Origin: an uncultured Ignavibacteriales bacterium
GTDB lineage: Bacteria > Zixibacteria > MSB-5A5 > GN15 > JAAZOE01
Direction of reading: 5' to 3'
Assembly (NCBI GenBank): GCA_964611355.1
Contig: CAZSYD010000002.1
Span: 10,409 to 74,408 of the forward strand
Length of the DNA stretch: 64,000 nt
Part shown: positions 2,771 through 26,466 of the stretch, piece by piece
Layout: each line of letters starts with the position of its first letter
Numbering within the stretch: position 1 is the first letter of the stretch
Notes under the pieces: generated by a model
The model's input: only the letters and a program-made list of their open reading frames with translations
Databases searched by the model: none
What the model was told of the DNA's origin: nothing
Program-made: the position numbers and the translations under genes

Positions 2771-5017
2771 ATGGATACGCAAAGCCTCATATTTACGATT
2801 ATTTATTTTGCCCTCGGAGCCGGGCTGATTTTCCTGTCGGTGCTGATCATCCGTGATTCGGTGCGGGTCAGGCTCAATCGTGTAACGGCGGCGATGTTGT
2901 TTCTGGCCGGGCTGGGGCCGGTTTTTACCGCTCTGGGTTCGGTGGTTTCCCCTTATCAAGCGGCGGCGCCGCTGAAGGAATCATATCTTTATAATTTATT
3001 CTACGTCTGGGAACTGTTTTTCCCCGTTCTTCTCTATTTTTCGTGGGTTTTCCCCAGGGATCGTCTGATCGGGAAGAAGATCAGGTGGCGGCTGCTTATT
3101 TTCGTACCCCATATTTTTCATATAATTCTTGTAGTCTTTTTCTATGACACCGAGCGTATCCTGGAATTTCTGACCGTCCAGCCCGGGGAAAGCGGGTTGA
3201 TTAACACTATCCTGGAACCGGTCACCTCGCTTTTGAAATGGCTGATGATCCCGCTCGGGCTTGTGTTGTCGTCGCATAAAAAGTTTTTCTCCCTGATAAA
3301 CCTGGCTTATGTCGCCCTGGCGCTTACTTATCTGTACAGGGGTATGAAGGCGGTCGAAATTCCCCGGCTGAAAAAACAGGTCAGGATACTGATTCTGGGC
3401 ATACATATATCGCTGGGGCTTTATATTTTTACCTTTATCCTGCCCGATCTGATCGGCCTTAGACTTTCCGAAACCCTTACTTCGCTTCTGACGGTTGCGG
3501 CCCTGGCGATAGGAGGCGGTTCGGTTGCCTGGGCGATTATCGGGTACCAGTTCCTCGATATCCGTCTTATTGTCCGCCAGTCCTTGGTTTATACCATCTC
3601 GTCCGCCCTGCTGGTCGGGGCTTACCTTATTGTTATTACCCGGTTGTCCGGCGTACTGGAGTCATTTCTCGGGGAACAGATGCCGCTTTTGAATATCGCC
3701 TTTATTATTATAGCTCTTATTCTCTTTCAGCCGATCAACAACTACGTTGACAATTTCATAAAGGGCATGTTTATCCGCGACCGGTCCGATTACCGCAACA
3801 TAATGGAAAGACTTTCGTCGCGAATTGTAAATATCCTTGATCGAACCAATCTGTTCCGCCTTGTGGAGGAAACGTTAAAAGGAAGCATGCTGGTTGGAGG
3901 AGTGAGTTTCGGCATTTATGATGACGCTCGACAGGCGTATCTGTATTTCCCCACGAGCGATGCCGATCCGGTCAGGCTCAGCAATACCGACCCGATGCTG
4001 GGAGCGATTGGACAGCTAAGCGTGCCAACCTTTTATGATCGGATTGAAGCCTGGCGCCGCGGTTCCACGCTGGCTACGATTCTGGGGGTCAACAACATTC
4101 ACGTAATCGTGCCCCTGCGGGCCAGGGAGCATTTGCTTGGGTTTATTGCCCTTACAAACAAGATATCCGGTTTCAAATTCAGCTTCGAAGATATGACTCT
4201 TCTTTCAACACTGGGAAATCAAATGGTGGTGGCGTTGACCAATGTAAGACTCTACCTGGAATCGCTCGAAAAAGAGCTCCTTGAAGAAGAGATGAAACTG
4301 GCCCGCCGGATTCAACTGGATTTGCTTCCCAAAAGGCCTCCCCGTGGAAAGGGGTTTTCGGTTGTCGCCCATAGCCAGCCGTCACGCACGGTAGGGGGCG
4401 ATTTTTATGATTTCGTTCCGACCAACAAGGCCGACGGGATAGCTATGGTTATCGCCGACGTCTCCGGCAAGGGGATGCCGGCGGCGCTCCTGGCGGCGCA
4501 GATCCAGGCGGTCCTGCGCACCGAAATATGCAACTGCAGGCTGGTATCCGAAACCATAACAAGTGTCAACAATATCATTGCCGGCTTGTCGTCGTCCTCC
4601 GGCAAGTACGCCACGCTTTTCTACGGCGAGTTCAATCCTGATACCAGCGAGTTTGAGTTCTCCAATGCCGGGCATAATTATCCCGTTCTGGTGCGCTCCG
4701 ACGGCAGTCACGAATTCCTCGAAACCGGCGGGCTGATAATCGGCGCTTTTGAGGGAAATCTTTACGAGTCGCATAAAGTAAAACTCGGCCCCGATGATCT
4801 GGTGTTTTGTTATACCGACGGCCTTTCGGAAGTGTGCGACGAGAAAGAAAATGAATTTGGCGAAGATCGAATCCTTGAGTATCTTAAGCAGAATCGTCAC
4901 CTTGCCCCGGATGAAATTAAAGACGGGATTTTGCGGCAGGTAAACAAGTTCTCTGCGTCCAGAACTCAGGAGGACGATACTACGCTGGTTATTCTAAAAA
5001 TTAACGGTCAGGCATGA
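2771..5017 (+). CDS. Membrane-bound PP2C/SpoIIE phosphatase (RsbU-like): multi-TM sensor, GAF-like domain, PP2C
   Basis: About 9-10 TM helices, central GAF-like region, PP2C motifs GGDFYD, IADVSGKG, NAGH, YTDGL, DDTT. Confidence 0.9.
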   Translation: MDTQSLIFTIIYFALGAGLIFLSVLIIRDSVRVRLNRVTAAMLFLAGLGPVFTALGSVVSPYQAAAPLKESYLYNLFYVWELFFPVLLYFSWVFPRDRLIGKKIRWRLLIFVPHIFHIILVVFFYDTERILEFLTVQPGESGLINTILEPVTSLLKWLMIPLGLVLSSHKKFFSLINLAYVALALTYLYRGMKAVEIPRLKKQVRILILGIHISLGLYIFTFILPDLIGLRLSETLTSLLTVAALAIGGGSVAWAIIGYQFLDIRLIVRQSLVYTISSALLVGAYLIVITRLSGVLESFLGEQMPLLNIAFIIIALILFQPINNYVDNFIKGMFIRDRSDYRNIMERLSSRIVNILDRTNLFRLVEETLKGSMLVGGVSFGIYDDARQAYLYFPTSDADPVRLSNTDPMLGAIGQLSVPTFYDRIEAWRRGSTLATILGVNNIHVIVPLRAREHLLGFIALTNKISGFKFSFEDMTLLSTLGNQMVVALTNVRLYLESLEKELLEEEMKLARRIQLDLLPKRPPRGKGFSVVAHSQPSRTVGGDFYDFVPTNKADGIAMVIADVSGKGMPAALLAAQIQAVLRTEICNCRLVSETITSVNNIIAGLSSSSGKYATLFYGEFNPDTSEFEFSNAGHNYPVLVRSDGSHEFLETGGLIIGAFEGNLYESHKVKLGPDDLVFCYTDGLSEVCDEKENEFGEDRILEYLKQNRHLAPDEIKDGILRQVNKFSASRTQEDDTTLVILKINGQA

Positions 5018-5018
5018 T

Positions 5019-5585
5019 ATGAAAGATGAAGATCTTATTTACTTAATCAGCGGAAAAAAGGTTACCGGAATTGATGATTATAAGGGATACCGGTTCTGCC
5101 CCCGGTGTGGGGCGGAGTTGGTGATATCGGAAGTCGAAGATAAAACCCGACCGCATTGCCCGTCGTGCGGCTTTATATATTATCAGAATCCGACTCCCGC
5201 CGCCGGCGCGATGATCGTCAAGGACGATAAAATTCTGCTGGTTAAGCGTTCGATTGATCCGGGTAAAGGCGACTGGTGTATTCCGGCGGGGTTTTGCGAA
5301 TGGACCGAGCATCCCCAGCAGACCGCCGTGCGCGAAATAAGGGAAGAGACGGGACTCGACATCAGGATAGACGGTATGTTTGACATCTTTATGGGGATGG
5401 ATGATCCCCGGACGCATGCCGTTTTGATTTTATACCTTGCCCGGATTCTCGGTGGGGAGTTGACTCCCGGTGACGACGCCGCTGACGCCCGCTACTTTGA
5501 TTTCGATGAGATTCCATCCGATATCGCCTTTCAGGCGCATCGTGACGCCCTGGCTCTTTACCGAAAGCGGTACCTCAACCGGTAA
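5019..5585 (+). CDS. Zn-ribbon NUDIX hydrolase (ADP-ribose pyrophosphatase-like)
   Basis: CPRC...CPSC zinc ribbon and Nudix box GFCEWTEHPQQTAVREIREETGL. Confidence 0.9.
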   Translation: MKDEDLIYLISGKKVTGIDDYKGYRFCPRCGAELVISEVEDKTRPHCPSCGFIYYQNPTPAAGAMIVKDDKILLVKRSIDPGKGDWCIPAGFCEWTEHPQQTAVREIREETGLDIRIDGMFDIFMGMDDPRTHAVLILYLARILGGELTPGDDAADARYFDFDEIPSDIAFQAHRDALALYRKRYLNR

Positions 5586-5590
5586 GCGCT

Positions 5591-7060
5591 ATGCTGCTTC
5601 GAACCAGGATATTTCGCCAGCTTGTTGCCCTTGCCCTTATTCCTTCATGTATAATCGCACTGGCGGCGTGTTTCCTCCTATTTCGGGCGGTCGATCAAAC
5701 GAGCCGATGGGTGTCGGCTTCGTCTCCGGACAGGACCATAAATTCCCTGCGGATTGTTGAAACGCGGCTGCAGGAAACGGCGCAGGAAATCCTTGCGGCG
5801 ATTGACCCGGATGATTTGAATAGTACCGATTCGATTTTTGATTGGTTTATTGTTATAAGAAATGGCGAAATTATCATTTCAGAGGTTTATGTTGACCTGC
5901 CGCCCGGAATGGATTCCATCATAAGCCATAGCCTGAAAAAAGCCGGTCCGATACGAGAAATCACCGGCCAAAATATCGCTATCGGGTCATCGGTATTCAA
6001 AAACGGTCGCCTGATCGCGGGCGGGTTTGTTTTAGATCGTGAATATTTGAGTGGTTTTGAAGCGGCTTCGGCCAGCCTGAGTGAGAACCGGGGTTACGGA
6101 AATATTCTTCCGGCCTTTTTGCTTTTTATTGTTGTCGCCGGTGCGTCTGTCTTAATAGTCGTAATTATCGTTGCGTACTTTCTTTCGCGTCGTCTTTCGG
6201 CGTCGATTACCACCCCACTGGAAAAACTGGCGGGATTTTCGAATACCGTTGCCGAAGGAAAGAGACCCGATAGAATCGCCGTAACCGGCACCGATGAGGT
6301 TATCGCGCTGGCGGAAACCTTGAACCGTATGACGGACGATTTAGAACAAAGCCGTCGGCGTTTGATGGCGGCCGAACGGGTGGCGGCCTGGCAGGAGTTC
6401 GCCCGGCGGATGGCTCATGAACTGAAAAACCCGTTGACGCCGATTTCAGTTTCGCTTTACCGCATCAAAAAGAAGCTCGAAGATCGCGGCGATTACGATA
6501 AGTACGCAGAACCGATAGAGGCGATTACCGCTGAAGTGTCGCATCTTGAAAGGCTGGCAGGTGATTATGCGTCGCTGGCCAAACTGCCTGAGCCGAAATT
6601 CGCGGCGTTCGAATTCAACGGTTTGGTCCGCGAGGTTGTCGAGCTTTTTGCCGCCCAGCTTGAAGAATATCGCCTGGAAAATAAAATAGAAGGCGGCGCG
6701 GTTGAGATTAAAGGCGATCCGGATCGTTTGCGCGAGGTGATGGTTAATTTGCTCAAAAATGCCGTTGAGTTTGCTCCCGGCGGCGGCCGGATTGCAATTA
6801 CCGCCGGTCACGAGGAAAACCGGGTATTTTTCTCGGTAGCAAACGACAATAAGGATACCGGCGTGAGCGAGGATAATCTCCGGGCGGCGAAGATGCCGTA
6901 TTTTACCACCCGCGAAGGCGGAGGCGGTCTGGGTTTGGCGATTTCCGAGAAGATTATTATTGATCACGGTGGCAGTCTGACTTTACGTTTGAGAGATGGG
7001 ATGACGGAAGCAAGATTTGAAATTCCTGACGGACAATCGGCACGGGAAATCAGCCAATGA
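5591..7060 (+). CDS. HAMP sensor histidine kinase (NtrY-like)
   Basis: Two TMs, HAMP, H box AWQEFARRMAHELKNPLTPI (NtrY-like), N box NLLKNA, G2 GLGLAI. Confidence 0.88.
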   Translation: MLLRTRIFRQLVALALIPSCIIALAACFLLFRAVDQTSRWVSASSPDRTINSLRIVETRLQETAQEILAAIDPDDLNSTDSIFDWFIVIRNGEIIISEVYVDLPPGMDSIISHSLKKAGPIREITGQNIAIGSSVFKNGRLIAGGFVLDREYLSGFEAASASLSENRGYGNILPAFLLFIVVAGASVLIVVIIVAYFLSRRLSASITTPLEKLAGFSNTVAEGKRPDRIAVTGTDEVIALAETLNRMTDDLEQSRRRLMAAERVAAWQEFARRMAHELKNPLTPISVSLYRIKKKLEDRGDYDKYAEPIEAITAEVSHLERLAGDYASLAKLPEPKFAAFEFNGLVREVVELFAAQLEEYRLENKIEGGAVEIKGDPDRLREVMVNLLKNAVEFAPGGGRIAITAGHEENRVFFSVANDNKDTGVSEDNLRAAKMPYFTTREGGGGLGLAISEKIIIDHGGSLTLRLRDGMTEARFEIPDGQSAREISQ

Positions 7061-8391
7061 TACTTATAATCGACGATGAAAAATATATCCGTTCCTCGCT
7101 ATCGGGTCTTCTTGATGATGAAGGATATAAAACGGCCGCCGTGGAATCAGCCGAAAAGGGTGAAAAGCTTCTGCAATCGCAGGATGTCGAATTGATTCTA
7201 CTTGATATTCAGATGCCGGGCAAGGACGGTCTCACCTTTCTCGAAGATAATAAATCACGCTTGCAGGGTATTCCCGTAATCATAATATCCGGCCGGGGGG
7301 ATATCCCCACGGCGGTATCGGCCATTAAGCTTGGCGCTTACGATTATATCGAAAAGCCGTTAAATCCGGAACGCGTATTGTTGACGATAACGCAGGCTCT
7401 TCGATTGTCGCGATCGCTTGAAGCCGAAAAAAAACTGGTCGGCCATATTCTCGACCGTTATCGGATAATCGGTCGATCGCAGGCGGTCACCCGGTTGGAG
7501 CAAATGATTACCAAAGCGGCGGCGACCGATGCGACTGTCCTGATCACCGGCGAAAACGGTACCGGCAAGGAGCTGGTAGCCTGTCATATCCATTATCGGT
7601 CGAATCGCAGGGCTGAACCGATGGTGGTTGTCAATTGTCCCGCCATTGCCGAACAGTTGTTCGAATCGGAACTGTTCGGTTATGTCAAAGGCGCCTTTAC
7701 CGGCGCCGGTACGGATCGGACCGGCCGATTCGAAAAAGCTCACGGCGGAACGCTGTTTCTCGACGAGATTGGCGAATTGCCGCTCTCTCTGCAGCCGAAA
7801 CTCCTGAGGGTTCTGGAAACCGGCCAATTCGAGAAGGTTGGGTCGGATGAAACCATCTCCGTCGATTGCCGCCTGATTGCCGCCACCAATCGGAATCTGA
7901 AAGAGATGATCGAAAAATCCAAATTCCGAGAGGATTTGTTTTATCGCCTTAACGTGGTGACCATAAACGTTCCTCCGCTTGGTTCCCGCCCTGATGACAT
8001 TCCTTTGCTGGTCGATCATTTTTTGGGGCGGATGAACGTTGAAAACGAGTATGCTTTCTCATCGGAGGCAATCGGCGCGATGGCTTCTTATGATTGGCCG
8101 GGGAATATCCGCCAGTTGAAAAACTTCATCCAGCAGATCGTTTTTAACTGCGAACCTGGAACGGTTGGAGTCGATGATGTTTCGCGAGTTTATTATAATC
8201 AGCACGGTATTGAATCATATCCGGCAGGCCGGAGCGAAAGCGGGCTGGCCGCTGCCGTGCGCCAGTTTGAAACCGGCTATCTTTCGAGATTATATCAAAA
8301 ACATAATGGCAATATATCGGCCATGGCGCGGGAGTTGAATATGGACCGCGGTAATCTCTCGAAAAAGCTGAGGCAACTCAAGATCGTGTAG
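7057..8391 (+). CDS. Sigma54-dependent response regulator (NtrX/NtrC-like)
   Basis: REC (LLDIQMP), Walker A GENGTGKE, GAFTGA loop, FLDEIG, C-terminal HTH; overlaps the kinase stop (ATGA). Confidence 0.92.
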   Translation: MILIIDDEKYIRSSLSGLLDDEGYKTAAVESAEKGEKLLQSQDVELILLDIQMPGKDGLTFLEDNKSRLQGIPVIIISGRGDIPTAVSAIKLGAYDYIEKPLNPERVLLTITQALRLSRSLEAEKKLVGHILDRYRIIGRSQAVTRLEQMITKAAATDATVLITGENGTGKELVACHIHYRSNRRAEPMVVVNCPAIAEQLFESELFGYVKGAFTGAGTDRTGRFEKAHGGTLFLDEIGELPLSLQPKLLRVLETGQFEKVGSDETISVDCRLIAATNRNLKEMIEKSKFREDLFYRLNVVTINVPPLGSRPDDIPLLVDHFLGRMNVENEYAFSSEAIGAMASYDWPGNIRQLKNFIQQIVFNCEPGTVGVDDVSRVYYNQHGIESYPAGRSESGLAAAVRQFETGYLSRLYQKHNGNISAMARELNMDRGNLSKKLRQLKIV

Positions 8392-8486
8392 ATTTTACCT
8401 GCCCCTTCGGTCGCATGGTGTGTAATAATAACTCGTTTCCGTAACCGATATTTTTATAACGTCAAAAAATTCAGACAGTTATAATT

Positions 8487-8503
8487 TCGGCACGACGTTT
8501 GAT
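8487..8503 (+). promoter_or_regulatory. Possible sigma54 -24/-12 promoter (variant)
   Basis: TCGGCACGACGTTTGAT versus consensus YTGGCACGRNNNTTGCW; correct GG-N10 spacing but GA instead of GC at -12. Confidence 0.35.
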
Positions 8504-8532
8504 TGTCTTCCGGGCAAAAAGAGGAGGAGAAG

Positions 8533-10290
8533 ATGAAACCGGCCAGGCAAATATTTCCAATACTGGTTGCCTTGTTCATGTTTACAACCGTCAGTGGTGC
8601 GGAAGGTCAATATAAAAAGTATGAACCGGATAAAAAAGAAGACAGGATACTGGCGAAGCTTGAACTGGGCGAACGGCAGTGGACGATTACGTTTTATGAT
8701 GAAGTCGGCAAAGGTCATGAATCTACTTATTTGATTTCGCAGGTAAATCGCAGCGAAGGGGCCATAACGCTGGGCGACGAAGTTACAATGAATGACGATG
8801 GCATCAAAGGGCCCGGTTTTTCCATTGATTTCAAGGATATAGATGAAATAAGAATAGACGCTGACCCCGACCGGTATGATGCGGCGTTTTATTTCATGGC
8901 GGCGGATTCGGAGCGAAAAAGACCCCGCTTCCGCCAAAAACGAGACCTTATCTTTTTCTTGAATTCAATTACCGTGGAAGAAGATGAATTCGTTCGCGGT
9001 TCGGTAGTAAGCCTTTTCGGCGACATAGACGTGTACGGCGAAGTCAATCGTGATGTGGTAACCGTCTTTGGCGATATACATGCCGGTAAAGAAGCGGTGA
9101 TCCGCGGCGACGTGGTATCGGTCAACGGCTCGGTGAAGCTTGCCTCGGGATCGTCGGTTTACGGTGCGGTCAGGTCATCCAAAGGGGAATATTCAACTCG
9201 CCGGCACCGTGCCCGCCGGTGGAAAAAGCTGGAAAACGAAATCTGCATAGCCGGTGATCTTTATTATAATCGTGTGGACGGACTCGCCCTTCTGGCAGGT
9301 TTCAAATACGACGACCCCGATTCGATTCTCCCTTCGTTCGAGACCCTTGGCGGTTACGCCTTCTCATCCGATCGCTGGCGATATAAACTGGTTTTGGCGC
9401 AGACGGTACTTCGCGGGCCGATGCCGGTTCAGATAGGGGGAAAAGTCTATCGCCTTTTGAAATCAGATGATGATCGGATCATTGGTGATTGGGAAAACAC
9501 GATTTTTGCCCTCCTCGTTAACGAGGACTGGAAGGATTTCTACGAGGCCGAAGGGGGCTACGGATTTGTCCGCCTCGGCTTTTTGCGCTGGAATCGGCTG
9601 GAGGTCGGATACCTGTCGGAAACGCAGAACTGGCTTGATGCACATCCCCAATTATGGTCACTGTTCGGCGCCAAGCAATTCAGGGGAAATTTCTCTTCGG
9701 TTCCTTATGATACTCTGGCGGTCATGAGATCTGATTTTGATGACAAGCTCATCGCCAGCCTCAATGCCAAATTTACTTTTGATTCGCGCGACGACGAAAA
9801 ACATCCGCGCCGGGGATGGTACGGTTATGCCGCCTACGAATATTCGCCGGACAAGTGGAAAGGCGATTTTGACTTCGAACGTTTTGAAGTGATTCTGAAA
9901 CGGTACCAGCCGATTCAACGATATCTATCGATACGGTTGATGGCTGCCTATGGCCGGGCTAAAGGTAACAATGTTCCTCTTAACCGGCAGTTTTTCCTTG
10001 GAGGGCTGGGCACGCTTCACGGTTATCGACACAAAGAATTTCGGGGCAACGAATACATGCTGGTCAGCGGTGAGTACGGTTTCCGCATTCCGCGATCGGA
10101 TATCAGCCCTTTTTTGCGATATGACGGAGGCAAGATCGCGCCCAATCGCCTGTCCGGTGAAAACAGTTGGTGCGGTGCCATTAGTATCGGTATCTGCTTT
10201 GAAGAAAACCTGAAGCTGTTTATTTCCCGGCGTCTTGATCGCGAAGATGAAGATCCGATCTTCTACGCTCGTTTTTCGGCACCAATTTAG
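8533..10290 (+). CDS. Omp85/BamA-TamA-family outer membrane barrel with N-terminal bactofilin-like beta-helix, no POTRA evident
   Basis: GAGGAGG RBS before ATG 8533; signal peptide; GSVV/GDID/GEV/GDV repeats; C-terminal FFLGGLGTLHGY surface-antigen motif. Confidence 0.72.
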   Translation: MKPARQIFPILVALFMFTTVSGAEGQYKKYEPDKKEDRILAKLELGERQWTITFYDEVGKGHESTYLISQVNRSEGAITLGDEVTMNDDGIKGPGFSIDFKDIDEIRIDADPDRYDAAFYFMAADSERKRPRFRQKRDLIFFLNSITVEEDEFVRGSVVSLFGDIDVYGEVNRDVVTVFGDIHAGKEAVIRGDVVSVNGSVKLASGSSVYGAVRSSKGEYSTRRHRARRWKKLENEICIAGDLYYNRVDGLALLAGFKYDDPDSILPSFETLGGYAFSSDRWRYKLVLAQTVLRGPMPVQIGGKVYRLLKSDDDRIIGDWENTIFALLVNEDWKDFYEAEGGYGFVRLGFLRWNRLEVGYLSETQNWLDAHPQLWSLFGAKQFRGNFSSVPYDTLAVMRSDFDDKLIASLNAKFTFDSRDDEKHPRRGWYGYAAYEYSPDKWKGDFDFERFEVILKRYQPIQRYLSIRLMAAYGRAKGNNVPLNRQFFLGGLGTLHGYRHKEFRGNEYMLVSGEYGFRIPRSDISPFLRYDGGKIAPNRLSGENSWCGAISIGICFEENLKLFISRRLDREDEDPIFYARFSAPI

Positions 10291-10294
10291 CGAG

Positions 10295-10981
10295 ATGAAA
10301 ACGGGGGACAGGTTGCGAATCGGCGGGGTTAGACAGCTGTTGATCGGGCTGCTTGGTTTGAGTATTTTCTCCCCGGCGACGCCCGTTATAGCCAAACAGG
10401 TTGAGTTTGACTACGATATTTTTGTAGTTGAGGATACTCTTGTTTTCTGGCTCGATATAACTCCGGCATTAACCCAAAGGAAAATGGAAGATCTTCTTTC
10501 CGGCCTTGATATCCATATCGGGATAGATATAAGGCTGGAAAGGCCCCGCCGGTTTCTTCCGGCAAGGACGCTTGTCAAAAAGCGGGCCGCTCTTTTGATA
10601 TCTCACCCGCTAACCGAAGATGTCTACTATTTGAAAACAGCCAATCCTGATGTTATTAAACATAAATTCGAGAGCCAGCTTCAACTGTCCGATTTCCTGG
10701 CCGATTCCCTGGTTTTCAAAATAGCCCCTGTTTCGGATATTGGGGGTGACGGCCGTCCTCGCCTGCGGCTTAACATTACCTGTAAATCGTTTACATTCAA
10801 GACTATGCTCGGTCGACCGGGAGGGCGGGACAAAGATTTACTGCCGGCAGACAGCAGCAATACCGAATTTTTTGAGGATATTTTTTCTGTTTTTTTCAGA
10901 CTAATCGGCTTCGGGGAGGAATCTTATCGAGTAATTTCTCCGCTTTTCGATCCCGCCGATCTGCCCCGCGATAAACGGTAA
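10295..10981 (+). CDS. Exported protein, DUF4390-like
   Basis: Hydrophobic N-terminal signal; KMEDLLSGLDIHIGIDIRLER...PLTEDVY resembles DUF4390, which often accompanies ntrY/ntrX; ATG 10295 avoids overlap with the upstream gene. Confidence 0.45.
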   Translation: MKTGDRLRIGGVRQLLIGLLGLSIFSPATPVIAKQVEFDYDIFVVEDTLVFWLDITPALTQRKMEDLLSGLDIHIGIDIRLERPRRFLPARTLVKKRAALLISHPLTEDVYYLKTANPDVIKHKFESQLQLSDFLADSLVFKIAPVSDIGGDGRPRLRLNITCKSFTFKTMLGRPGGRDKDLLPADSSNTEFFEDIFSVFFRLIGFGEESYRVISPLFDPADLPRDKR

Positions 10982-11051
10982 AGCCTAATTGTTTTCCACC
11001 TAACTGCCGATAATTAAGATAGTTATAAATACCTGCCGGGGTGAAGTACAT

Positions 11052-12824
11052 ATGGCCAAGCCGACAGATCGGGAAATAGAAAAGGAAAAAGGGTTTATCT
11101 CAGAAAGCCCGGATTTCGATGACAATCAGTCAACCGACCGCGTCGAAGTTGGCAATGTTCTGGCCGAAATGGAAAAGACGCTCAACGATATCGTGAGCGA
11201 AAACCCTCGCATTTCCACTCAATCAGACAGCAGCTTGGTTCGACTCGATGATCTTAAGGCGATTCTGGAGATATCGCTGGCCATCAATTCCACTCCGGCG
11301 CTTGAAGAAATCCTGCAGGTAGTGATGCTGAAGGCCGTGGAACTGCTGTCGGCCGAGCGCGGTTTTATTATGCTCCTCGATAAAGAGGGTAATCTCCAGT
11401 TTAAATCGGCCCATAAAATCCGCCGCGAAGAAACCACCCAAGAGTATTTCAAAATTTCCTATTCCATTGCCAACCGGGTGGCCCAAACAGGCAAGTCGGT
11501 TTACACCTCCGATGCGCAGGAAGATAAGCGTTACGCAAGGCAGCAATCGGTTGTGGAGTTGAACCTGCGTTCGATCATGTGCGTGCCGCTAAAGATCAAA
11601 AAACGCGTAATCGGTGTTATTTATCTGGATAATTCATCGCAGGCCAAGCTGTTTCTGAAGTCCGACCTGTATCTTTTTGAGCATTTCGCCCAGCAGGCGG
11701 CCATGGCCATCCATAAGGCTCAATTATACAACAATCTCAACCGCCTGAAGAAGTACAACGAGGACATTATCGCTCAGTCACCGGTCGGCATCATTGTTAT
11801 TGACCCCGAATATAATCTGATAACCATCAATGAGGGCGGCCTGGCCATCTTCCAAGTAAATAGGTCGGATATTGATCTGAGGGAGGATTCGGAAAAGAGA
11901 AGCCGCTTTTTCGATTTGATTCCTCACGATGATGGGGCGGCGTGGCAAAAAATGATTGAGGTAGTCCTGACCGGAATCGAGAATTACCAGGAAGATCGTT
12001 ATTTCCACCATACCGGCTTTGAAGAAAAAGTCCTTTCAATAAAGATATCCTCGATAGACAGCCTGCCGGGGAATAAAACCGGGGCCATTCTGGTTATCGA
12101 GGACATAACCGAGAAGGTTGTTCTGGAAAAGTACGTGATCCTCTCGGAGAAAATGGTCGCCAAGGGCGAGATGGCCGCCTCAATCGGGCACGAGTTGAAT
12201 AATTATCTGACTATCATATCGACCAATGCCGAATTGATACAGTTAAATCTTGAGCGCAATAAAATGGACAAAGTCATCCAGAACAGCCGCCAGGTGATCG
12301 ACAATGTCGCCAGGGTAAAAAGATTTACCGACGGGTTGATGGACTACTCCAAGCTGGAAACTGAAATGGTCAGCTATGATGTTCGGCGTCTTGTGGAAAA
12401 CCTGGTGTTTTCAATCAAGTCACAGCCCAAGTTCAAAGAGGTGCGGATAAAGACGTCATATTCGGCTGATCTGCCCGAGATAAGCATCGACGTGGGTCAG
12501 ATACAGCAGGTTCTTCTAAACCTGCTTAATAATGCCGTTGATGCCATGGAGGATGCCGTTAAACCGGAGATAAAAATCTCCTGCCGGTTCGATAAAAAAA
12601 GAGACATGATGGTGCTCCGCGTAGCCGACAAAGGTCACGGCATGTCGGAGGAGGTGCAGAACAAGCTGTTTCAAGCTCATTTTACCACCAAACCGCATGG
12701 GCACGGGCTGGGACTGGTCAATTCGCATAAGATTATTGTAAGCCACGGTGGCGAGATTCAAGTCGAGTCAACAGAGGGTAAAGGGACTGCGTTCAGCATC
12801 TTCCTGCCCCGTAACCGGAAATAG
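11052..12824 (+). CDS. Cytoplasmic GAF-PAS histidine kinase
   Basis: GAF (LEISLAINST...SIMCVPL...GVIYLDN), PAS, H box IGHELNN, NLLNNA, DKGHG, GHGLGL; no TM. Confidence 0.9.
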   Translation: MAKPTDREIEKEKGFISESPDFDDNQSTDRVEVGNVLAEMEKTLNDIVSENPRISTQSDSSLVRLDDLKAILEISLAINSTPALEEILQVVMLKAVELLSAERGFIMLLDKEGNLQFKSAHKIRREETTQEYFKISYSIANRVAQTGKSVYTSDAQEDKRYARQQSVVELNLRSIMCVPLKIKKRVIGVIYLDNSSQAKLFLKSDLYLFEHFAQQAAMAIHKAQLYNNLNRLKKYNEDIIAQSPVGIIVIDPEYNLITINEGGLAIFQVNRSDIDLREDSEKRSRFFDLIPHDDGAAWQKMIEVVLTGIENYQEDRYFHHTGFEEKVLSIKISSIDSLPGNKTGAILVIEDITEKVVLEKYVILSEKMVAKGEMAASIGHELNNYLTIISTNAELIQLNLERNKMDKVIQNSRQVIDNVARVKRFTDGLMDYSKLETEMVSYDVRRLVENLVFSIKSQPKFKEVRIKTSYSADLPEISIDVGQIQQVLLNLLNNAVDAMEDAVKPEIKISCRFDKKRDMMVLRVADKGHGMSEEVQNKLFQAHFTTKPHGHGLGLVNSHKIIVSHGGEIQVESTEGKGTAFSIFLPRNRK

Positions 12825-12834
12825 ATTTGGCTAA

Positions 12835-15800
12835 GTGATGGGTACGGCGAGCGACGTTTTTCCAAAAGGGTACACCATCATAAAAAAAATCGGCGAGGGC
12901 GGCACGTCTGAAGTTTTTCTCGCCGGAGCAGACGGTCATTCACGGCCGGTGGCCGTTAAACTTTTTTCCGATTTTTCCGCCTTTGATCTGGTTGAACGCG
13001 AACTGGAGATTGCCGGCCGTATAAAGTTTCCCGGTATTGTTCGGGTTCATCGATCCGGCCGGACGACAGACGGCAGGTATTTCGTCCAGACTGAATATTG
13101 TCCCGGGCCGACATTGGATAATCTGGCCGGCAGGATATCAGAGGATAAACTTCTGTCGATTCTTTCTGCGGTTTCAGCTTCCTTAAATGTCCTGCACCAG
13201 GCCGGGTACACTCATAATGATATCAAGCCGGCCAATATATTTTCTCCGACGGGATTTGATAATGATGATTTCCCCGTAAATCGGCTCTATTATTTAAAGC
13301 TTGGCGATTTTTCTCTTGCCCGGCGCTGCGACCGTGATGACACGGCTTCGGTCACCGGCACCGTCGGATATATGTCCCCGGAGATGATTCTTAAGAAAAA
13401 GATTGCGCCCGCTTCGGATCTTTTTTCACTTGGCGTCACGGGCTATTACCTTGCTTGCGGGAAGCCGCCTTTTGCCGCCGATACCGACGATCCGTTGGAA
13501 ATCAACGCCCGGATTACCGAAGGAGAACGTCCTTGTTTGTGCGGACCGACAGCTTCATTCTCGGAAGATACGACGAAATTGATTAAATCACTTTTGGAGA
13601 TCGATCCAGACAGTCGGCCGTCTTCCGCATTTGAACTGCTGGAATTACTTGCCAAAGCAGGCTCACCCTATCCCTTCAGAAAAGCAATCAGGCCTCGGCA
13701 TCTTTTGTGGGGATGGCGAAAAATTGATTCGACAACCTTAACCGATCTTTTTGGTAATAGCAGTTTTTCGCCGGGTCATCTGGATTTTATTCAAAGAGTG
13801 ACTTCGTATGACCCTGCGCACGTGCGCATTCTGCTGGAATGCAATTTCGAGGCCGGAAATTTCGCTCGTCTGGATGGCTGCTGGGGATGGAAAAACGAGT
13901 CGGCCGATTCGATAGAATGGTCGCGCAGGCAAATGCGATTCAGTCTTCGCCATTTACGCGGAAGGCCGGTTTCTCTAAAACATCTGGCTCTGGCCCTGGC
14001 GATAGTCGGCAGCGGGGCTGAGGTTGAAAGGGTCGCCGATGTGCTTTCGGCTGATAAGAAACGTCTTCTCGATCAATGGTATTCAATTCCCGAAGGAAGA
14101 CAGGCGGCTCTTCTGTATTCGCTTGACTCTGTAATGGCTGCGTCCACGAGAAAAATACTCTCCCGCCGATTAATTCGGATATATGAAAAATCTGAAAGCC
14201 GCAGGGATTTGGTCGGGAAGCTTATGTTCAACGTGGGAAGATATGCTGACGCCGTTCAATACCTGACCGCGGCGGCCGAGGATTATATTGCCGGTAACCG
14301 GCACGATGATTCATTTCCTCTTTTGGATATTGCGTTAGACGCGGCCGGGAAACTTGATGATCCGGCTTTACGGGCTGATGTCCTTATACTGAAAGCTCGA
14401 TTGCTTAAGGACCTGGGCCGGTTGCAACCGGCTGAATATTACTATAATGAAGTTATAGGCCTGGCGCGGCAGAACGACTTGAAAGAAGTTTCGGCCAGAG
14501 CCCATAAAGATATCGGCGATATTTACAAGGCAAAATCCGATTACAACGCCGGAATTGAAGCTCTCAACCACGCCCTTGAATTATACCGTGACTTGAACGA
14601 CCAGTTGGAATTGTCGCATACGCTTAATAATCTCGGCAATATACACTGGGTGGCAGGCCAACTGGACCAGGCTCTTAGACATTACCATGAAGCGCTTAAT
14701 ATCCAGACCGAATTGAAATCAGACAGGGATATCGCTTCCAGTTTAAACAATATCGGTTCGATATGTATTATGCAGGGCCGATACAACGAAGGCGTCTCGT
14801 TTCTTGACCGGTCGCTGGTAATTAAGGAGGAACTGGGCGACAAAAGGGAACTGGCCCGCACCTGGAATAACCTGGGCGTGGCACAATTTTTGGCCGGTCA
14901 TATTGATCAGGCCATAAATGCCTATATCAGGTCTCTTGAGTATAATCGCGAAATTGAAGATCGGCATGAACAACTTCTAAATATCGAGAACCTGGCCGAG
15001 GTAATGATTCAGGCCGGACGCCTGAAGAAGGCGCTGGAGTATCTTAAAGAAGGCACGAAATTGGCTGAAGAGGAGGATGCCGATTTCCATAAGAGCGATC
15101 TAAGGCGGCTTACCGGTCAGCTCCTGAGGCGGATGGGATACTATGATGATGCTGAAGCGAAATTGAACCGGGCATTTGAGATCGCCAAGAAGACGGACAA
15201 TAAGGGACTCCGGCTGGTCTGCACCCAAAATATTGCGCGACTGTACTTCGCCATTGGCGAAACCTCAACGGCGAAGGAGTATATATTAATGGCCGTAAGG
15301 CTGGCCGAAAGCCTGGGTGATAAAAACGCCTTGTTTCACCTGTCCCTCATGCAATTCGAGATTTCCGGTGACGTAAAACTCCGTGAGAAGGCTGAAGAAT
15401 TCGCGAAGGATTTAAGTTCCAACCGAGAAACGGCTCTATTGAATCTTACCTTACTCGAGCAAAATAATAAACGGAACACGAACAAAGATTCTGATAAATA
15501 CCTGACAGGTGCGGGAAGGTTTTTCAATGATGGAATCGAAGATATCGACCGGGCGCGGTTTGGCCTGGCGGTTGGTAAATATCATTTCCTCATAAAAGAG
15601 GAGGAAAAGGCGGTTAGGCAACTTGAGAAATCGCTGAAACTGGCCGTCAATTCGGGTTTACTTCTGGAGCAGTGGCAAATATCGTCTCTTCTTTCCGAGA
15701 TAACTTTTGCGGGCGGCGATTTCGAAACCTCATTTGACTATGCTCAGCAAACCCTGGATGTTTTGAAAAAAATCTCGGCGAAAGTGAAAGATTCGCAAAG

Positions 15801-15909
15801 GCTGGGCAGGTTTTATAATGATGAAAGGATTATCGAACTTCTGGGCCGGGTCAAATCGCTCCAGTCGGTTCTGGGACATAAAAGAGGGGCTGCCGCAGAC
15901 AGCCCCTGA
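12835..15909 (+). CDS. Hanks-type Ser/Thr kinase fused to a long TPR array
   Basis: GEGGTSEV, VAVK, HNDIKPAN, DFS (for DFG), GTVGYMSPE; repeated LNNLG/LNNIG/WNNLG TPRs from about aa 500 onward. Confidence 0.88.
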   Translation: MMGTASDVFPKGYTIIKKIGEGGTSEVFLAGADGHSRPVAVKLFSDFSAFDLVERELEIAGRIKFPGIVRVHRSGRTTDGRYFVQTEYCPGPTLDNLAGRISEDKLLSILSAVSASLNVLHQAGYTHNDIKPANIFSPTGFDNDDFPVNRLYYLKLGDFSLARRCDRDDTASVTGTVGYMSPEMILKKKIAPASDLFSLGVTGYYLACGKPPFAADTDDPLEINARITEGERPCLCGPTASFSEDTTKLIKSLLEIDPDSRPSSAFELLELLAKAGSPYPFRKAIRPRHLLWGWRKIDSTTLTDLFGNSSFSPGHLDFIQRVTSYDPAHVRILLECNFEAGNFARLDGCWGWKNESADSIEWSRRQMRFSLRHLRGRPVSLKHLALALAIVGSGAEVERVADVLSADKKRLLDQWYSIPEGRQAALLYSLDSVMAASTRKILSRRLIRIYEKSESRRDLVGKLMFNVGRYADAVQYLTAAAEDYIAGNRHDDSFPLLDIALDAAGKLDDPALRADVLILKARLLKDLGRLQPAEYYYNEVIGLARQNDLKEVSARAHKDIGDIYKAKSDYNAGIEALNHALELYRDLNDQLELSHTLNNLGNIHWVAGQLDQALRHYHEALNIQTELKSDRDIASSLNNIGSICIMQGRYNEGVSFLDRSLVIKEELGDKRELARTWNNLGVAQFLAGHIDQAINAYIRSLEYNREIEDRHEQLLNIENLAEVMIQAGRLKKALEYLKEGTKLAEEEDADFHKSDLRRLTGQLLRRMGYYDDAEAKLNRAFEIAKKTDNKGLRLVCTQNIARLYFAIGETSTAKEYILMAVRLAESLGDKNALFHLSLMQFEISGDVKLREKAEEFAKDLSSNRETALLNLTLLEQNNKRNTNKDSDKYLTGAGRFFNDGIEDIDRARFGLAVGKYHFLIKEEEKAVRQLEKSLKLAVNSGLLLEQWQISSLLSEITFAGGDFETSFDYAQQTLDVLKKISAKVKDSQRLGRFYNDERIIELLGRVKSLQSVLGHKRGAAADSP
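15880..15907 (-). terminator. Intrinsic terminator for the minus-strand small-peptide transcript
   Basis: Minus strand AGGGGCTGTC-TGC-GGCAGCCCCT then CTTTT; overlaps the last codons of the kinase-TPR gene. Confidence 0.7.
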
Positions 15910-15954
15910 TTCGACCAACTGGATTACGATCGGGGTGTTACCCCTGTCCGTAGA

Positions 15955-16032
15955 TTATTGACCACCCAGACTGATATTAGCCGGGGCAACCTTCTCTTCC
16001 AGTTCTTCGATGAGCAGATCATAATCCCTCAT
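15955..16032 (-). CDS. Unannotated 25-aa peptide MRDYDLLIEELEEKVAPANISLGGQ; candidate RiPP-like precursor (leader ...EELEEKVAP, putative core ANISLGGQ)
   Basis: Translated by hand; AAGGAGG RBS (16046-16040) 7 nt before ATG; upstream sigma70 promoter; downstream terminator; adjacent RRE-M50 peptidase gene; below the ORF-track length cutoff. Confidence 0.8.
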   Translation of the reverse strand: MRDYDLLIEELEEKVAPANISLGGQ

Positions 16033-16062
16033 TCGAGTGCCTCCTTAGTTAGGGTCGAATAC

Positions 16063-16088
16063 TCCCGGTCATATGATGATGGCCGGGA
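16063..16088 (-). promoter_or_regulatory. 5'-UTR stem-loop of the small-peptide transcript
   Basis: TCCCGGTCAT-ATGATG-ATGGCCGGGA inverted repeat (10 bp, one imperfect pair). Confidence 0.55.
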
Positions 16089-16182
16089 ATTTCTATGTAT
16101 AAAGCTTTTACTTCGCCCGTTACTTGCCGGATCAGAGTGCCGGTTTTTAAGCAGTTGAATAAATTACTACTACTCAACCTGA

Positions 16183-16210
16183 ACTATAATCAAAAATCCT
16201 GATATGTCAA
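16183..16210 (-). promoter_or_regulatory. Sigma70-type promoter driving the small peptide
   Basis: Minus strand TTGACA-N16-TATAGT, about 150 nt upstream of the ATG. Confidence 0.7.
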
Positions 16211-23121: not shown

Positions 23122-26100
23122 TTAGAAGTCGGCTCCCAGCGAGAAAGAGTGCTTGGCGTGCGGCTCGACTGAATTGAAATCTGTGCGCCAGGCCAGATCA
23201 TACCGCAAAATCAAGAATCCCAGGTTGGCGCGGGCTCCAAAACCGAAACCCGATTTGATGTCCACCAGCCGGGGGCCTCCTTTGGAAGTCGCTCCCTTGA
23301 AAGCGTCGTCGTCGCTCCAGGCCGCACCCATATCAAGGAAGAGGGTGCCGGTGATGCGGCTCAGGCCAAGACGGAGGGGATAACGCATCAGGAAATAATC
23401 GATAAAAGGAAAACGGACCTCCATATTGGTTACTGCGTATCGAGTGCCGACCAGTTCATAGTAATCATATCCTCGCAGGGGCGTTATAACGGCGGAGAAG
23501 TATAGATTTTCAACTTCGTAAACGTCGGCGGCCACCGAAACGCTTCCGATTTTGTTGGTGCTGCCTCCCAGGAAGTAATTCTTCGGATTTGATCCTCGGC
23601 TTATTCCGCCCGAAAGCCTGAAGGCGAAACCAAATGGCCGGGCAAACGGGAAATACTGCCGGTAATCAAGCTCGCCTGCATAATAATCCACCGATTGGGA
23701 TCCAAAGATGGGAGTAGCGCCTTCTATACTTAATTTGTATCGGCGGCCGTTGACCGGTCCGGTAATGCCCCAGAGGACGGTGTCATTAATCCAGCTAAGC
23801 GCGCCGGTTGTTACCCTCACATTCCGGCCCTCGAGGAACGGGTCGTCGTAGTATTTGCGGTCGATGAAAGTGGTGGTGGTGTTGAGTTCAATGCGGCTGT
23901 ATTTCGAACGAGGCCAGGCCAAGCCGGCCATAATGCCGTAAAAGCGATCCGAGAAAAGATCGTTTTTGGAATCAATGTAATAGTTTTTGGTGTGAAACAG
24001 GCCGACGCCGAGATCAACCTTTAGTTTATTGTAGAGATAGAAAAACTGCAGGTTTGATTGATCAATGGTGTTGATGAGGTCGGTGACGACGTATATCTGG
24101 TGGTCTCCGACGTAATCGGAAAAAACGAATAATGTCTGGCCGCGGAAACCAAAGAAAGAATCATACTGCAGCCCGCCTGAAATATAGTCGGGCGTAAATC
24201 TGGTTTTGTATGGTTTTACTTTATATTCACCGTTGGAGAGCTTGTTATCGAGTGAATCGGTCAGCAGACTGTCGATCGGCATTTCTTCTGCGGCCGAGTA
24301 AGGCGCTTCGCCCTCGGCGGTAAGCTCGCCTGTGGGCGCAAAGATAGATTCCTCGAGGGGAGCGTTGTAAACGTACCGGTCCTCGTCTTCTTCATCCGGT
24401 TTTTCCGTTTCCTTTTCAGGTTCCTTTTCCTCAGATGCTTCTTCAGAGACGGCTGATGAATCCCCCGCTAAATCCTTTTCGGCCTCGGGTTCAATTGTCT
24501 CATCGGTTTTCTCATCCTCTGCTTTATCACCCTCACCAGCGTCAAGGCCGTTCCAATCGCTATGAACCCCGGCCGGCGATACGGGAAAGTCAGGATCGTA
24601 CATGGGCGGTGTCTCCAATGTTGCGCCGTTATCGGTTGCCGTTAGAAGTCGGGTGTCATCACTTTGGCGGGCCCAGTCCGCTTCATTATCATATTTGCCC
24701 ATCACGAAGTCGGTAGGCGGCAGAACGCCGTTTTTGCCTTTGACTTCGATATCCTTGATAACGAAGATATCATAGCCGCCCTTGAAGAACGTGGAATAGG
24801 CGATATTACAGCCGTCCGACGACCAGGTTGGAGACTTGGCGTTGGATAAAGCGTTCGTTATAGCCATGACTCGAGCCGAGTCAACGTAGTAGATGTAGAT
24901 ATTATCGGTACCGTTGCGGTTGGAGACGAAGGCGATGCGTTCTCCGTCCGGGGAAACGGCAGGTTCCGTGTTTTGACCGGCTCCTGCAAGCAGCGGTGTG
25001 ATCTTCCCTGATTCGAGGTCCATAATCTGGAGATTGTAGCGGCCGTAGTCGAGCATGGTGGTATCGATCGGCTGATGATTATCGGGATGCGGGCGATCCG
25101 AGGAAAAGATTATGCGCCGGTTGTCGGGAAACCAGGCCACGTCAATATCATCGTACCGGTCGCCGGTTAGTTGTATGAGTGAGTCAGTCTCGAAATCGAT
25201 CATAAACAGGTCGCGGGCCGGGCCGGAAAGAGCGGTAAAGACAACGTCCTTGCCGTCCGGCGACCAGGCGGGCGAGATTATTGATTTCAGACCGAATTTT
25301 TTACGCAGATAGATTTTCCTGTTTTTCAATTTCAGAAAATTGAGCGCATCTTCACCTTTCGATTTGGAAACAAACACCAGATTTTCGCCGTTGGGCGAAA
25401 ACGATATGCCCGAAGTGTACCAACGCAGTGATTCGAGGTCGGCCGAACGTTCTCCCTTAACCAGCCGCGTAATCTTTTTCCCGTCGATGGCTGATATCAG
25501 ATGGATTTCGGAATAACCGCTTACGTCGGTAAATATGGCCAGCATCTGGCCCTTTGGGGAAAAGACCGGCTTTTCATTAAAATTCGATCCGTCTTTTGTA
25601 TGATCGGTTAACTGACTGGCGAAGTCTTTTGGTTCTTCACGCATAGAAATATCGGGCCAGTACCGTTTTCTCATCTCCTTGGCGAATTTCTCATAAAGGT
25701 CTTCGCTGTTCATCCCGATTGATGATTTCAGCGCTTTGTCAATCGTCAGCAGAGCTTTACCCTTTTTGAAGATTTCGCCGATTTTATTAACGCCGTAGTT
25801 GTCGGTTATATACTTAACCAGAGCAAATCCTTCGGTATAGGCAAGCATCCCCATATATTCCGGCGGTCGCAGATATCCGTTGATGGCGGCGTCGCGAACC
25901 ACCATGTCAGCCTGCTGTGTCCAGCCGCCATTGGAGGAATACTCGGCGTAACCTTCGGCCAGCCACAGGGGCTGACGAAAAAGACGGTTTGGGGTAAGGA
26001 CAGCCTTAAAGAATTCGCCATAGATAAGATCATAGATAACTGCGTGGGTCAGCTCATGGTGCAGAAGATGCCGGAAATCCTCGTACGATCCCATAAAATG

Positions 26101-26466
26101 AACGACTATTCGTTTTTTGAACGCTTCGGTGAAGCCTTGAGTTCCTTCGCTTGGCTCCTCATTGATGATATTTGTCTGCTGGAAATCGTTGTGCGAATTG
26201 TAAATGAAAACCGGAATGCGGCTTTTGGAAAAATATTTTAGCTGATCGGTAATGATTTCATAAGCATGCTCCAATTTCCGGGCGGCGAACCCGGCCAGCT
26301 CGTATTCCCCATCGTAGAAATAAATATCGAAATGTTCCGTTTGAATATATTCCCAGTCGAAACCCCGGTACTGGACTTTGTTCTTTCCGAAATATGTTTC
26401 CTGCGCCCCTGTCGGAGAAAAGCCATAAAGTAATATCAGGCCCAGGAGGAGGGCTGTCTTTTTCAT
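23122..26466 (-). CDS. Exported zinc-peptidase (MA-like) domain, PD40/TolB-like beta-propeller, acidic linker and Omp85 barrel
   Basis: Signal peptide; HHELTH...WLAEGYAEY; repeated PxFSPxG/PAWSPDG; E/D-rich linker; YFLGG...PLRGY; C-terminal F. Confidence 0.82.
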   Translation of the reverse strand: MKKTALLLGLILLYGFSPTGAQETYFGKNKVQYRGFDWEYIQTEHFDIYFYDGEYELAGFAARKLEHAYEIITDQLKYFSKSRIPVFIYNSHNDFQQTNIINEEPSEGTQGFTEAFKKRIVVHFMGSYEDFRHLLHHELTHAVIYDLIYGEFFKAVLTPNRLFRQPLWLAEGYAEYSSNGGWTQQADMVVRDAAINGYLRPPEYMGMLAYTEGFALVKYITDNYGVNKIGEIFKKGKALLTIDKALKSSIGMNSEDLYEKFAKEMRKRYWPDISMREEPKDFASQLTDHTKDGSNFNEKPVFSPKGQMLAIFTDVSGYSEIHLISAIDGKKITRLVKGERSADLESLRWYTSGISFSPNGENLVFVSKSKGEDALNFLKLKNRKIYLRKKFGLKSIISPAWSPDGKDVVFTALSGPARDLFMIDFETDSLIQLTGDRYDDIDVAWFPDNRRIIFSSDRPHPDNHQPIDTTMLDYGRYNLQIMDLESGKITPLLAGAGQNTEPAVSPDGERIAFVSNRNGTDNIYIYYVDSARVMAITNALSNAKSPTWSSDGCNIAYSTFFKGGYDIFVIKDIEVKGKNGVLPPTDFVMGKYDNEADWARQSDDTRLLTATDNGATLETPPMYDPDFPVSPAGVHSDWNGLDAGEGDKAEDEKTDETIEPEAEKDLAGDSSAVSEEASEEKEPEKETEKPDEEDEDRYVYNAPLEESIFAPTGELTAEGEAPYSAAEEMPIDSLLTDSLDNKLSNGEYKVKPYKTRFTPDYISGGLQYDSFFGFRGQTLFVFSDYVGDHQIYVVTDLINTIDQSNLQFFYLYNKLKVDLGVGLFHTKNYYIDSKNDLFSDRFYGIMAGLAWPRSKYSRIELNTTTTFIDRKYYDDPFLEGRNVRVTTGALSWINDTVLWGITGPVNGRRYKLSIEGATPIFGSQSVDYYAGELDYRQYFPFARPFGFAFRLSGGISRGSNPKNYFLGGSTNKIGSVSVAADVYEVENLYFSAVITPLRGYDYYELVGTRYAVTNMEVRFPFIDYFLMRYPLRLGLSRITGTLFLDMGAAWSDDDAFKGATSKGGPRLVDIKSGFGFGARANLGFLILRYDLAWRTDFNSVEPHAKHSFSLGADF

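Follow-up and report, generated by a model that had tools for sequence, protein, structure and literature searches.

The 25-codon open reading frame (ORF) located at 16032..15955 is, on the evidence of its conservation among related genomes, a real and conserved gene and not a chance ORF. The encoded peptide would be a precursor that is cut in a leader-guided manner after Pro17 by the adjacent fusion protein, with release of ANISLGGQ, probably coupled to export; we attribute a probability of about 0.6 to this reading. The precursor family to which the peptide is assigned by comparison of homologous loci is large, widespread and unnamed, and it occurs in many uncultured bacteria.

Organization of the peptide gene and its expression cassette

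In the window, i.e. the whole stretch of 64,000 nucleotides that was analysed, the promoter, hairpins, ribosome-binding site (RBS), ORF and terminator listed in the preliminary description were all found again on the minus strand and at the same positions (Table 1). The stem of the terminator counts 10 bp with 7 GC pairs and is followed by CUUUUAU, and this terminator overlaps the final codons of the convergent kinase gene. The predicted transcript of 299 nt folds with a z-score of -3.1 versus shuffled sequences; the robust hairpins of the folded molecule are those at 16088..16063 and 15944..15932 and the terminator. For the long 5' UTR, no credible match with a known riboswitch or sRNA was obtained in Rfam, whether the whole window was searched at the gathering threshold or the locus at E ≤ 10. 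Promoter and terminator scans restricted to the window were just about 2-fold above shuffles, so that the reality of the gene had to be decided by cross-genome conservation. The exact 25-mer of the window is absent among about 15 billion predicted proteins, which fits the earlier claim that gene callers miss this gene. A palindrome, TCACA-CGGA-TGTGA, is observed just 3' of the -10 box in five related loci (L001, L002, L003, L004 and L007), at the place where the window carries its GTTGA...TCAAC hairpin.

Table 1. Coordinates of the peptide gene, its expression signals and the two flanking genes in the window.
Feature	Coordinates	Strand	Remarks
Peptide ORF, 25 codons	16032..15955	-	ATG...TAA; translation MRDYDLLIEELEEKVAPANISLGGQ*
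Leader region, codons 1-17	15982..16032	-	MRDYDLLIEELEEKVAP
Core region, codons 18-25	15958..15981	-	ANISLGGQ
Stop codon TAA of the peptide ORF	15957..15955	-	
Shine-Dalgarno sequence AAGGAGG	16046..16040	-	7 nt spacing to the ATG
Sigma-70-type promoter	16210..16183	-	TTGACA-16 nt-TATAGT; 11/12 matches; -35 box 16210..16205, -10 box 16188..16183
Hairpin at the predicted 5' end of the transcript	about 16178..16154	-	GTTGA-N15-TCAAC
GC-rich hairpin of the 5' UTR	16088..16063	-	~17 nt 5' of the RBS
Small hairpin of the 3' UTR	15944..15932	-	GGGGT-AAC-ACCCC; no conservation in relatives (close-locus alignment)
Intrinsic terminator	15907..15878	-	GGGGCUGUCUGCGGCAGCCCC + U-run; stem + U-run 15907..15885
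Ser/Thr kinase-TPR gene, 1024 aa	12835..15909	+	convergent with the peptide gene; no hydrophobic segment
Partner gene, 774 aa	18592..16268	-	5' of the peptide gene, same strand

Conservation and coding signature

Loci for comparison were retrieved from species-representative genomes via the protease alone, and the best 80 of 498 confirmed relatives were used. Screening for leader ORFs with a profile of 15 leader residues gave 99 hits, distributed over the window and 58 of 82 loci (these include the best 80 of the 498 relatives). In the same 58 loci, the ORF, the RBS and the leader motif are conserved beside homologues of the M50 gene, as the preliminary description had anticipated for a genuine gene. 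Two orthologue contigs, at 72% and 66% identity, encode VKDYKLLIEELEEKVAPANMSMGGQ and MKDYDLLIEVLEEKVAPIGLSTGGRLWGP, respectively, at the equivalent place, and both loci possess an RBS and a TTGACA box. The start codon is ATG in 89 of the 99 leader ORFs and a Shine-Dalgarno-like motif precedes 89 of the 99.

The coding test was carried out on the last 14 leader codons of 52 distinct DNA sequences of the Zixibacteria type. The entropy at codon positions 1, 2 and 3 was 0.71, 0.42 and 1.48, respectively, and the pN/pS ratio of the leader reached 0.29 in frame, versus 1.1 and 3.0 when the frame was shifted. Upstream of 27 of the 53 Zixibacteria-type copies, at a steady distance, lies a promoter with 10 or more of the 12 positions matched, a score that 1.8% of random 260-nt windows reach in the control. 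When eight close loci were aligned, the intergenic DNA proved divergent whereas the -35 box (kept in 7 of the 8), the pre-RBS hairpin at 16088..16063, the RBS and the ORF are retained; compensatory changes are seen in the hairpin, and the amino-acid sequence of the peptide is kept while its DNA wobbles. The terminator of the window gene is also present in locus L001 and each of the tandem copies of locus L022 possesses its own. On these alignments, the stand-alone cassette (promoter, RBS, ORF and terminator) that had been proposed from the window is a conserved feature.

Leader and core of the peptide family

The leader follows the pattern Y-x-L-x-Φ-E-x-L-E-x-[RK]-[IV]-A-P, the logo positions being Y(-14), L(-12), Φ(-10), E(-9), L(-7), E(-6), [RK](-4), [IV](-3), A(-2) and P(-1). 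All 99 ORFs carry L(-7) and E(-6), 98% carry P(-1), and the conservation stops precisely at this proline. The leader of the window peptide ends with E(-8)L(-7)E(-6)E K V A(-2)P(-1), for a family consensus of E(-9)xL(-7)E(-6)x[RK][IV]A P. In Zixibacteria, the core counts 6-17 residues with the consensus Φ-G-Φ-S-x-G-G-Q, at times followed by a Gly/Trp-rich tail, and the gene is usually present in single copy, 150-700 nt 3' of the protease gene; one lineage harbours 4-7 tandem copies with cores such as SRYGAE. The family extends to Acidobacteriota, Gemmatimonadota, Verrucomicrobiota and a Burkholderiales MAG. In the MAGs outside Zixibacteria, 1-7 leader ORFs per locus scored above threshold, mostly 5' of the protease gene and on its strand, and the cores are of 30-50 residues. 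Five core types, all Gly/Asn/Pro-rich, recur across phyla and occur together as sets, with GNPGNNNPPLNNTNNPGNEGTGGQVSTGG, GTGGYDGQPGNQ..SGSANPEGSANPE and DSVNGVPGESNGNPGNEVSNG as examples (loci L060, L062, L068, L070, L072-L075 and L078; also L091, L096, L103, L133 and L196). This recurrence suggests conserved, as yet unnamed functions. A conserved leader and a variable core had been expected: the leader is indeed conserved, and the core varies between phyla but is fairly constant within Zixibacteria.

No Pfam or NCBIfam family was found for eight representative peptides at E ≤ 10, the database copies of family peptides carry the name "hypothetical protein", and no account of this peptide family was found in the literature searched. 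It was also observed that the recurring cross-phylum cores are far more conserved than is usual for bacteriocin cores. A second class of peptides, of about 50 aa, possesses the leader LTxEQKxQVxxxTGKDAxALELSVEELEERIAP followed by just 3-13 residues and ends in ...ELSVEELEERIAP, with a weak match of 13 bits to the NHLP-clan model NF038399 (loci L086, L087, L104, L145, L148, L157, L168, L180, L188 and L197).

The adjacent RRE-M50-adaptor fusion protein

The longest ORF of the partner gene begins with a TTG at 18694 and codes for 808 aa, and the homologues align from the ATG at 18592. As these homologues count 769-774 aa, the ATG is the likelier start, and the 34 extra codons upstream of it are probably untranslated. 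The preliminary description had pointed to an M50 gene beside the peptide gene; it does encode a protease, yet one that forms part of a three-domain fusion, with a PqqD-like RRE (residues ~10-90), the M50 site-2 protease (motifs HEFAH at 194-198 and NPLIKLDG at 290-297) and a HlyD/MacA-like periplasmic adaptor (residues ~435-774). The protein scores 191 bits (E 3e-56) against the NCBIfam model NF041824 (daptide_HExxH, daptide biosynthesis intramembrane metalloprotease), in an alignment that spans profile positions 11-364 of 379 (354 positions). The equivalog cut-off of this model is 300 bits; by its profile score the partner is thus a homologue of the daptide protease and not an equivalog. With NF058609 (the YydH/LiaK model), it obtained 40 bits for a cut-off of 225.

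The C-terminus matches Pfam HlyD_D23 and HlyD_3 and NCBIfam RND_mfp (E 4e-20). In the AlphaFold2 model (mean pLDDT 80.6), an N-terminal domain of three strands and three helices (residues 15-86) is followed by a helical membrane core and then by a beta-rich C-terminal domain with long helical hairpins, for which Foldseek retrieved MacA, EmrA and AcrA at E ~1e-13. The barrel-sandwich and alpha-hairpin fold typical of adaptors is thus found after a membrane anchor. From the seven hydrophobic segments, a cytoplasmic N-terminal domain and a periplasmic adaptor would be expected. Pfam PqqD, the usual RiPP recognition element (RRE), is above threshold on the N-termini of two homologues (P0060, 33 bits; P0087, 26.5 bits). 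The N-terminus of the window protein itself falls below this threshold, so that it is assigned an RRE from homology and from the model: PqqD matches of homologues, the three-strand/three-helix N-terminal fold and an NF041824 alignment that starts from profile position 11. Among the names given to homologues are "PqqD-family chaperone" (one protein, NCBI) and "putative peptide zinc metalloprotease protein" (JGI). The locus therefore combines the attributes of an RRE-dependent precursor, namely a short ORF, a conserved leader, a more variable core and a PqqD-like RRE in the neighbour.

Coupling of the peptide to the fusion protein

When all neighbouring ORFs were clustered, the fusion gene was the sole gene that co-occurs universally with leader ORFs. 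In a reverse test, metagenome contigs were scanned with a degenerate DNA pattern for Φ-E-x-L-E-x-R-I-A-P, which yielded at least 120 loci. Among the matches listed, the motif stands near the start of a small ORF in 59 loci, 21 of which possess the fusion gene, most of these small-ORF contigs being just 1-3 kb long. Among the same matches, it occupies the N-terminus of a large protein in 24 loci (fusion gene in 0/24) and lies inside a protein or occurs by chance in 37 others (1/37), which gives 1/61 for these two kinds pooled. The protease-first search and this motif-first test show that the coupling is specific and holds in both directions.

No leader ORF was detected within 4 kb in 24 of the 82 homologue loci (including the best 80 of 498), and a relaxed motif search revealed no variant leader in the homologue loci devoid of a leader match. 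These loci include an M50-HlyD clade at 32-36% identity (L044-L055; also L026, L035 and L036), in which the M50-HlyD gene is followed instead by a thioredoxin-like gene of 139 aa and a TPR gene of about 390 aa.

The large proteins found in the scan, of about 500-2,200 aa, carry the motif (typically IEPLESRIAPA) in their first 5-30 residues, with no obvious Sec signal (loci L101, L110, L112, L114, L121, L125, L126, L136, L139, L142, L144, L174, L177, L192, L194, L195 and others). We take this IEPLESRIAPA-type motif to resemble the LEPR-XLL motif. A match with the latter in NCBIfam was found neither for the small peptides nor for the large IEPLESRIAPA proteins at E ≤ 10, a search in which the HMMER filters may lose very short models.

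Gene surroundings

The kinase-TPR gene is syntenic with the peptide gene in 37 loci, mostly from Zixibacteria, and the gene order in these 37 is fusion gene, peptide, convergent kinase-TPR, GAF-PAS histidine kinase and DUF4390 protein. As far as gene order can tell, the kinase-TPR is a possible functional partner of the peptide; its synteny, seen mostly in one phylum, may be inherited gene order. An A-run precedes the hairpin at 16088..16063 and, on the plus strand, a T-rich tail follows it, so that A-run and hairpin together read as an intrinsic terminator of the plus strand. Both are kept where the kinase converges and are mostly missing from the tandem arrays without kinase. The kinase mRNA (stop codon at 15909) probably runs antisense through the entire peptide ORF and its RBS, and the kinase and peptide transcripts would then overlap by about 200 nt.

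The remaining genes that were annotated in the window have housekeeping or signalling functions; a tailoring enzyme, an ABC/MFS pump or a TolC-like gene was not found among them, and none of these recurs beside the homologues in the 82 loci (best 80 of 498 included). In the 27 loci from other phyla, there is no recurring neighbour family and no enrichment in ABC transporters, and a radical SAM gene is present in 3 of the 27. The earlier observation that no tailoring enzyme lies nearby is thereby extended from the annotated parts of the window to these 27 loci, where no such enzyme recurs.

Several other features of the window were recorded. Signalling genes are unusually dense around the peptide locus, at 2771-15909 and 31577-35309, and include a SpoIIE-type phosphatase, a GAF-PAS kinase and two histidine kinase/sigma-54 activator pairs; the signalling genes of the window also comprise two Ser/Thr kinases (12835-15909 and 43294-45039). 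Two convergent paralogues of exactly 1096 aa each (36487-39777, plus strand; 39913-43203, minus strand) share 28% identity over their full length (E 4e-111) and contain repeats as in the PD40-repeat protein at 23122-26466. A gene for a VgrG/gpD-like baseplate hub (57862-59634, minus strand) comes after large ORFs without Pfam match (50164-57447), and the region 50164-59634 (minus strand) may be a contractile injection system or a prophage tail module.

Proposed maturation and alternative readings

In the maturation that we propose, a two-part precursor composed of a 17-residue leader, MRDYDLLIEELEEKVAP, and the 8-residue core would be expressed from its own promoter and possibly also via read-through from the upstream gene. 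The cytoplasmic PqqD-like domain at the N-terminus of the 774-aa protein would bind the leader; a strand addition to the RRE would be compatible with the hydrophobic residues that alternate in Y-x-L-x-Φ and with the invariant L(-7)E(-6). The M50 domain would cut after Pro17, as the daptide homologue is proposed to cut after ...EAP, and the short linear peptide would be passed to an envelope-spanning export via the fused MacA/EmrA-type adaptor, with inner- and outer-membrane partners that would be encoded elsewhere. Cleavage after AP with release of ANISLGGQ is plausible in view of a leader conservation that ends at Pro(-1). Leader binding, cleavage site, export and biological role are steps that we infer. 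The fused adaptor suggests an export of the peptide; as no pump or TolC gene was found among the annotated window genes or recurrently near the homologues, this export is a conjecture, and the mechanism is weakest where the pump and the outer-membrane partner are missing. Since the conserved unit comprises no modification enzyme, the product is probably unmodified. The core conserved in Zixibacteria, the single copy and the signalling neighbours favour a signal or effector over an arms-race bacteriocin and, from this genomic context, we lean towards a signal rather than a bacteriocin.

That the ORF is incidental, the conserved thing being a non-coding element (3' UTR/terminator region of the kinase gene, or antisense RNA), is hardly credible. 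The pre-RBS hairpin, read as a plus-strand terminator, would fit such an element, the region being then probably transcribed on both strands, and no Rfam family matches the region; against it, the codon-position entropy and the pN/pS ratio are specific to one frame, it is the amino acids that are kept under wobbling DNA, and the family also exists where no kinase converges, in tandem copies each equipped with RBS and terminator. Both the chance-ORF and the non-coding readings are contradicted by this coding signature. Equally little weight can be given to a daptide precursor, the C-terminus of which would be turned into an amine by DapB/C/D/M: protease homology and a similar leader end speak for it, but the required Thr is the last residue in 0 of the 99 peptides, the set of aminotransferase, alcohol dehydrogenase and methyltransferase is not nearby, and the protease is below the equivalog cut-off and bears an extra HlyD domain. 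Membership of the daptides was ruled out by the C-terminal residue and the missing enzymes.

Two readings that accept the gene as coding have to be weighed more carefully. The peptide could be a true RiPP precursor whose core is modified by enzymes encoded elsewhere, the adjacent protease removing the leader afterwards. The usual occurrence of RRE proteins in RiPP pathways, the radical SAM genes near 3 of the 27 other-phylum loci and the fact that only 64 kb of the genome are in view lend it some credit; we consider it unlikely in the face of a peptide-protease pairing that persists while all other neighbours change, of the want of any tailoring enzyme among the annotated window genes, and of the 82 loci from several phyla (best 80 of 498 included) in which no tailoring family recurs beside the pair. 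TPR domains commonly bind short peptides, and the peptide, cleaved or uncleaved, could instead stay in the cytoplasm as a ligand of the TPR-Ser/Thr kinase or as a substrate-like regulator occupying the protease. The kinase, which has no membrane segment, is convergent and syntenic in 37 loci, is absent from the lineage in which the core changed to the SRYGAE type, and its transcript probably runs antisense through the peptide gene. The pair is nevertheless found without any kinase in other phyla, the synteny can be explained as phylogenetic inertia, and a product confined to the cytoplasm would hardly call for a fused periplasmic adaptor, which renders this role rather improbable.

Significance

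If the leader-guided cleavage by the fusion protein is true, the two genes would form a minimal system of peptide maturation, made of a precursor and a single protein in which recognition of the leader and its cleavage are combined with an adaptor that spans the envelope. The system occurs in five or more diderm phyla that are largely uncultured, and relatives of the fusion protein are encoded by no fewer than 498 stretches of the species-representative genomes. The same mechanism would carry the combination of RRE and site-2 protease known from daptides past the tailoring pathways of Gram-positive bacteria, would add a gene family too short for gene callers and would open a way into the peptide signalling or export of Zixibacteria, of which, to our knowledge, almost nothing is known.

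A broader proposal, which we regard as speculative and rather unlikely, is that Φ-E-x-L-E-x-R-I-A-P is a general N-terminal targeting and processing signal read by RRE-M50-adaptor fusions. It would imply an unrecognised leader-dependent, Sec-independent route of maturation and export in diderm bacteria, whose cis-encoded clients would be the small Gly/Asn/Pro-rich peptides and which might also serve the large (500-2,200 aa) IEPLESRIAPA... proteins.

Comparison with known systems

Proteins bearing an RRE are usually members of RiPP pathways. Daptides were discovered via an RRE fused N-terminally to a site-2 protease; their leader motif, ELExMEAP, places Pro at -1, recognition of the leader requires L(-7) and M(-4), the RRE-dependent processing requires L(-7), MpaP is proposed to remove the leader, and the C-terminal Thr is invariant and strictly required as the modification site (bioRxiv 10.1101/2023.03.08.531785). 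The resemblance to ELExxxAP leader ends of RRE-dependent RiPPs claimed in the preliminary description holds in its daptide part, as shown by this motif and by the 191 bits of the neighbour with daptide_HExxH. Daptides (DapA/MpaA, DapP/MpaP) and the present pair have in common an RRE placed N-terminal to an M50 site-2 protease, homologous protease domains, short precursor genes that adjoin the protease gene and are often multi-copy, and the four leader positions L(-7), E(-6), A(-2) and P(-1). They differ by the C-terminal residue, Thr in daptides and Gln in the window peptide (0/99 with Thr here), and by the tailoring enzymes DapB/C/D/M and the ABC transporter genes that accompany daptides and are absent here. 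A DapB/DapC oxidative decarboxylase, a PLP aminotransferase, a methyltransferase, an alcohol dehydrogenase and ABC transporters were not found among the annotated window genes, and the daptide enzyme set is not recurrent in the 82 loci (best 80 of 498 included). In addition, the protease here bears a further HlyD/MacA-like adaptor at its C-terminus, the hosts belong to diderm phyla (Zixibacteria and others) instead of Actinomycetota or Bacillota, and the cores are Gly-rich and polar where those of daptides are aliphatic helices. Given the lack of a C-terminal Thr and of tailoring genes, the pair is a relative of the daptide protease-leader pair and not a daptide system.

The double-glycine systems (colicin V CvaABC-TolC; NHLP/Nif11, TIGR03794) are close functional analogues: they also combine a small peptide, modified or not, that has an acidic ...ELE... 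leader, a leader protease in physical linkage with the export apparatus, a HlyD-type adaptor and multi-copy precursor arrays, and the peptides of about 50 aa (...ELSVEELEERIAP) resemble the NHLP-type leader, with their weak NF038399 match. In these systems, a GG or GA motif is cleaved by a C39 cysteine peptidase carried by an ABC pump, whereas here the motif is A-P, an M50 protease with an RRE is fused to the adaptor and no pump gene is linked. Neither a C39 nor an ABC gene was found near the peptide among the annotated window genes and in the 27 other-phylum loci, and a PCAT/double-glycine bacteriocin was rejected on the basis of the AP leader end and of this neighbourhood.

M50 proteases act in other RiPP pathways, such as TglG/TmoG and EpeP, and pearlin clusters also use an M50 protease. 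EpeP is thought both to cleave and to export its own peptide; the epipeptide system (YydF/EpeX and YydH/EpeP) thus shares with the present pair a membrane M50 protease that matures a small peptide and is thought to be involved in export. It differs by its radical SAM epimerase YydG, for which the window has no adjacent radical SAM counterpart, and by another leader. Membership of this family was discarded in view of the NF058609 score (40 bits vs 225) and of the radical SAM gene not being adjacent. The C-terminal 340 residues have the fold of the adaptors MacA, EmrA and AcrA, including the long alpha-hairpin, and come after one membrane anchor, but the anchor is here the last helix of a polytopic protease and no cognate pump is adjacent.
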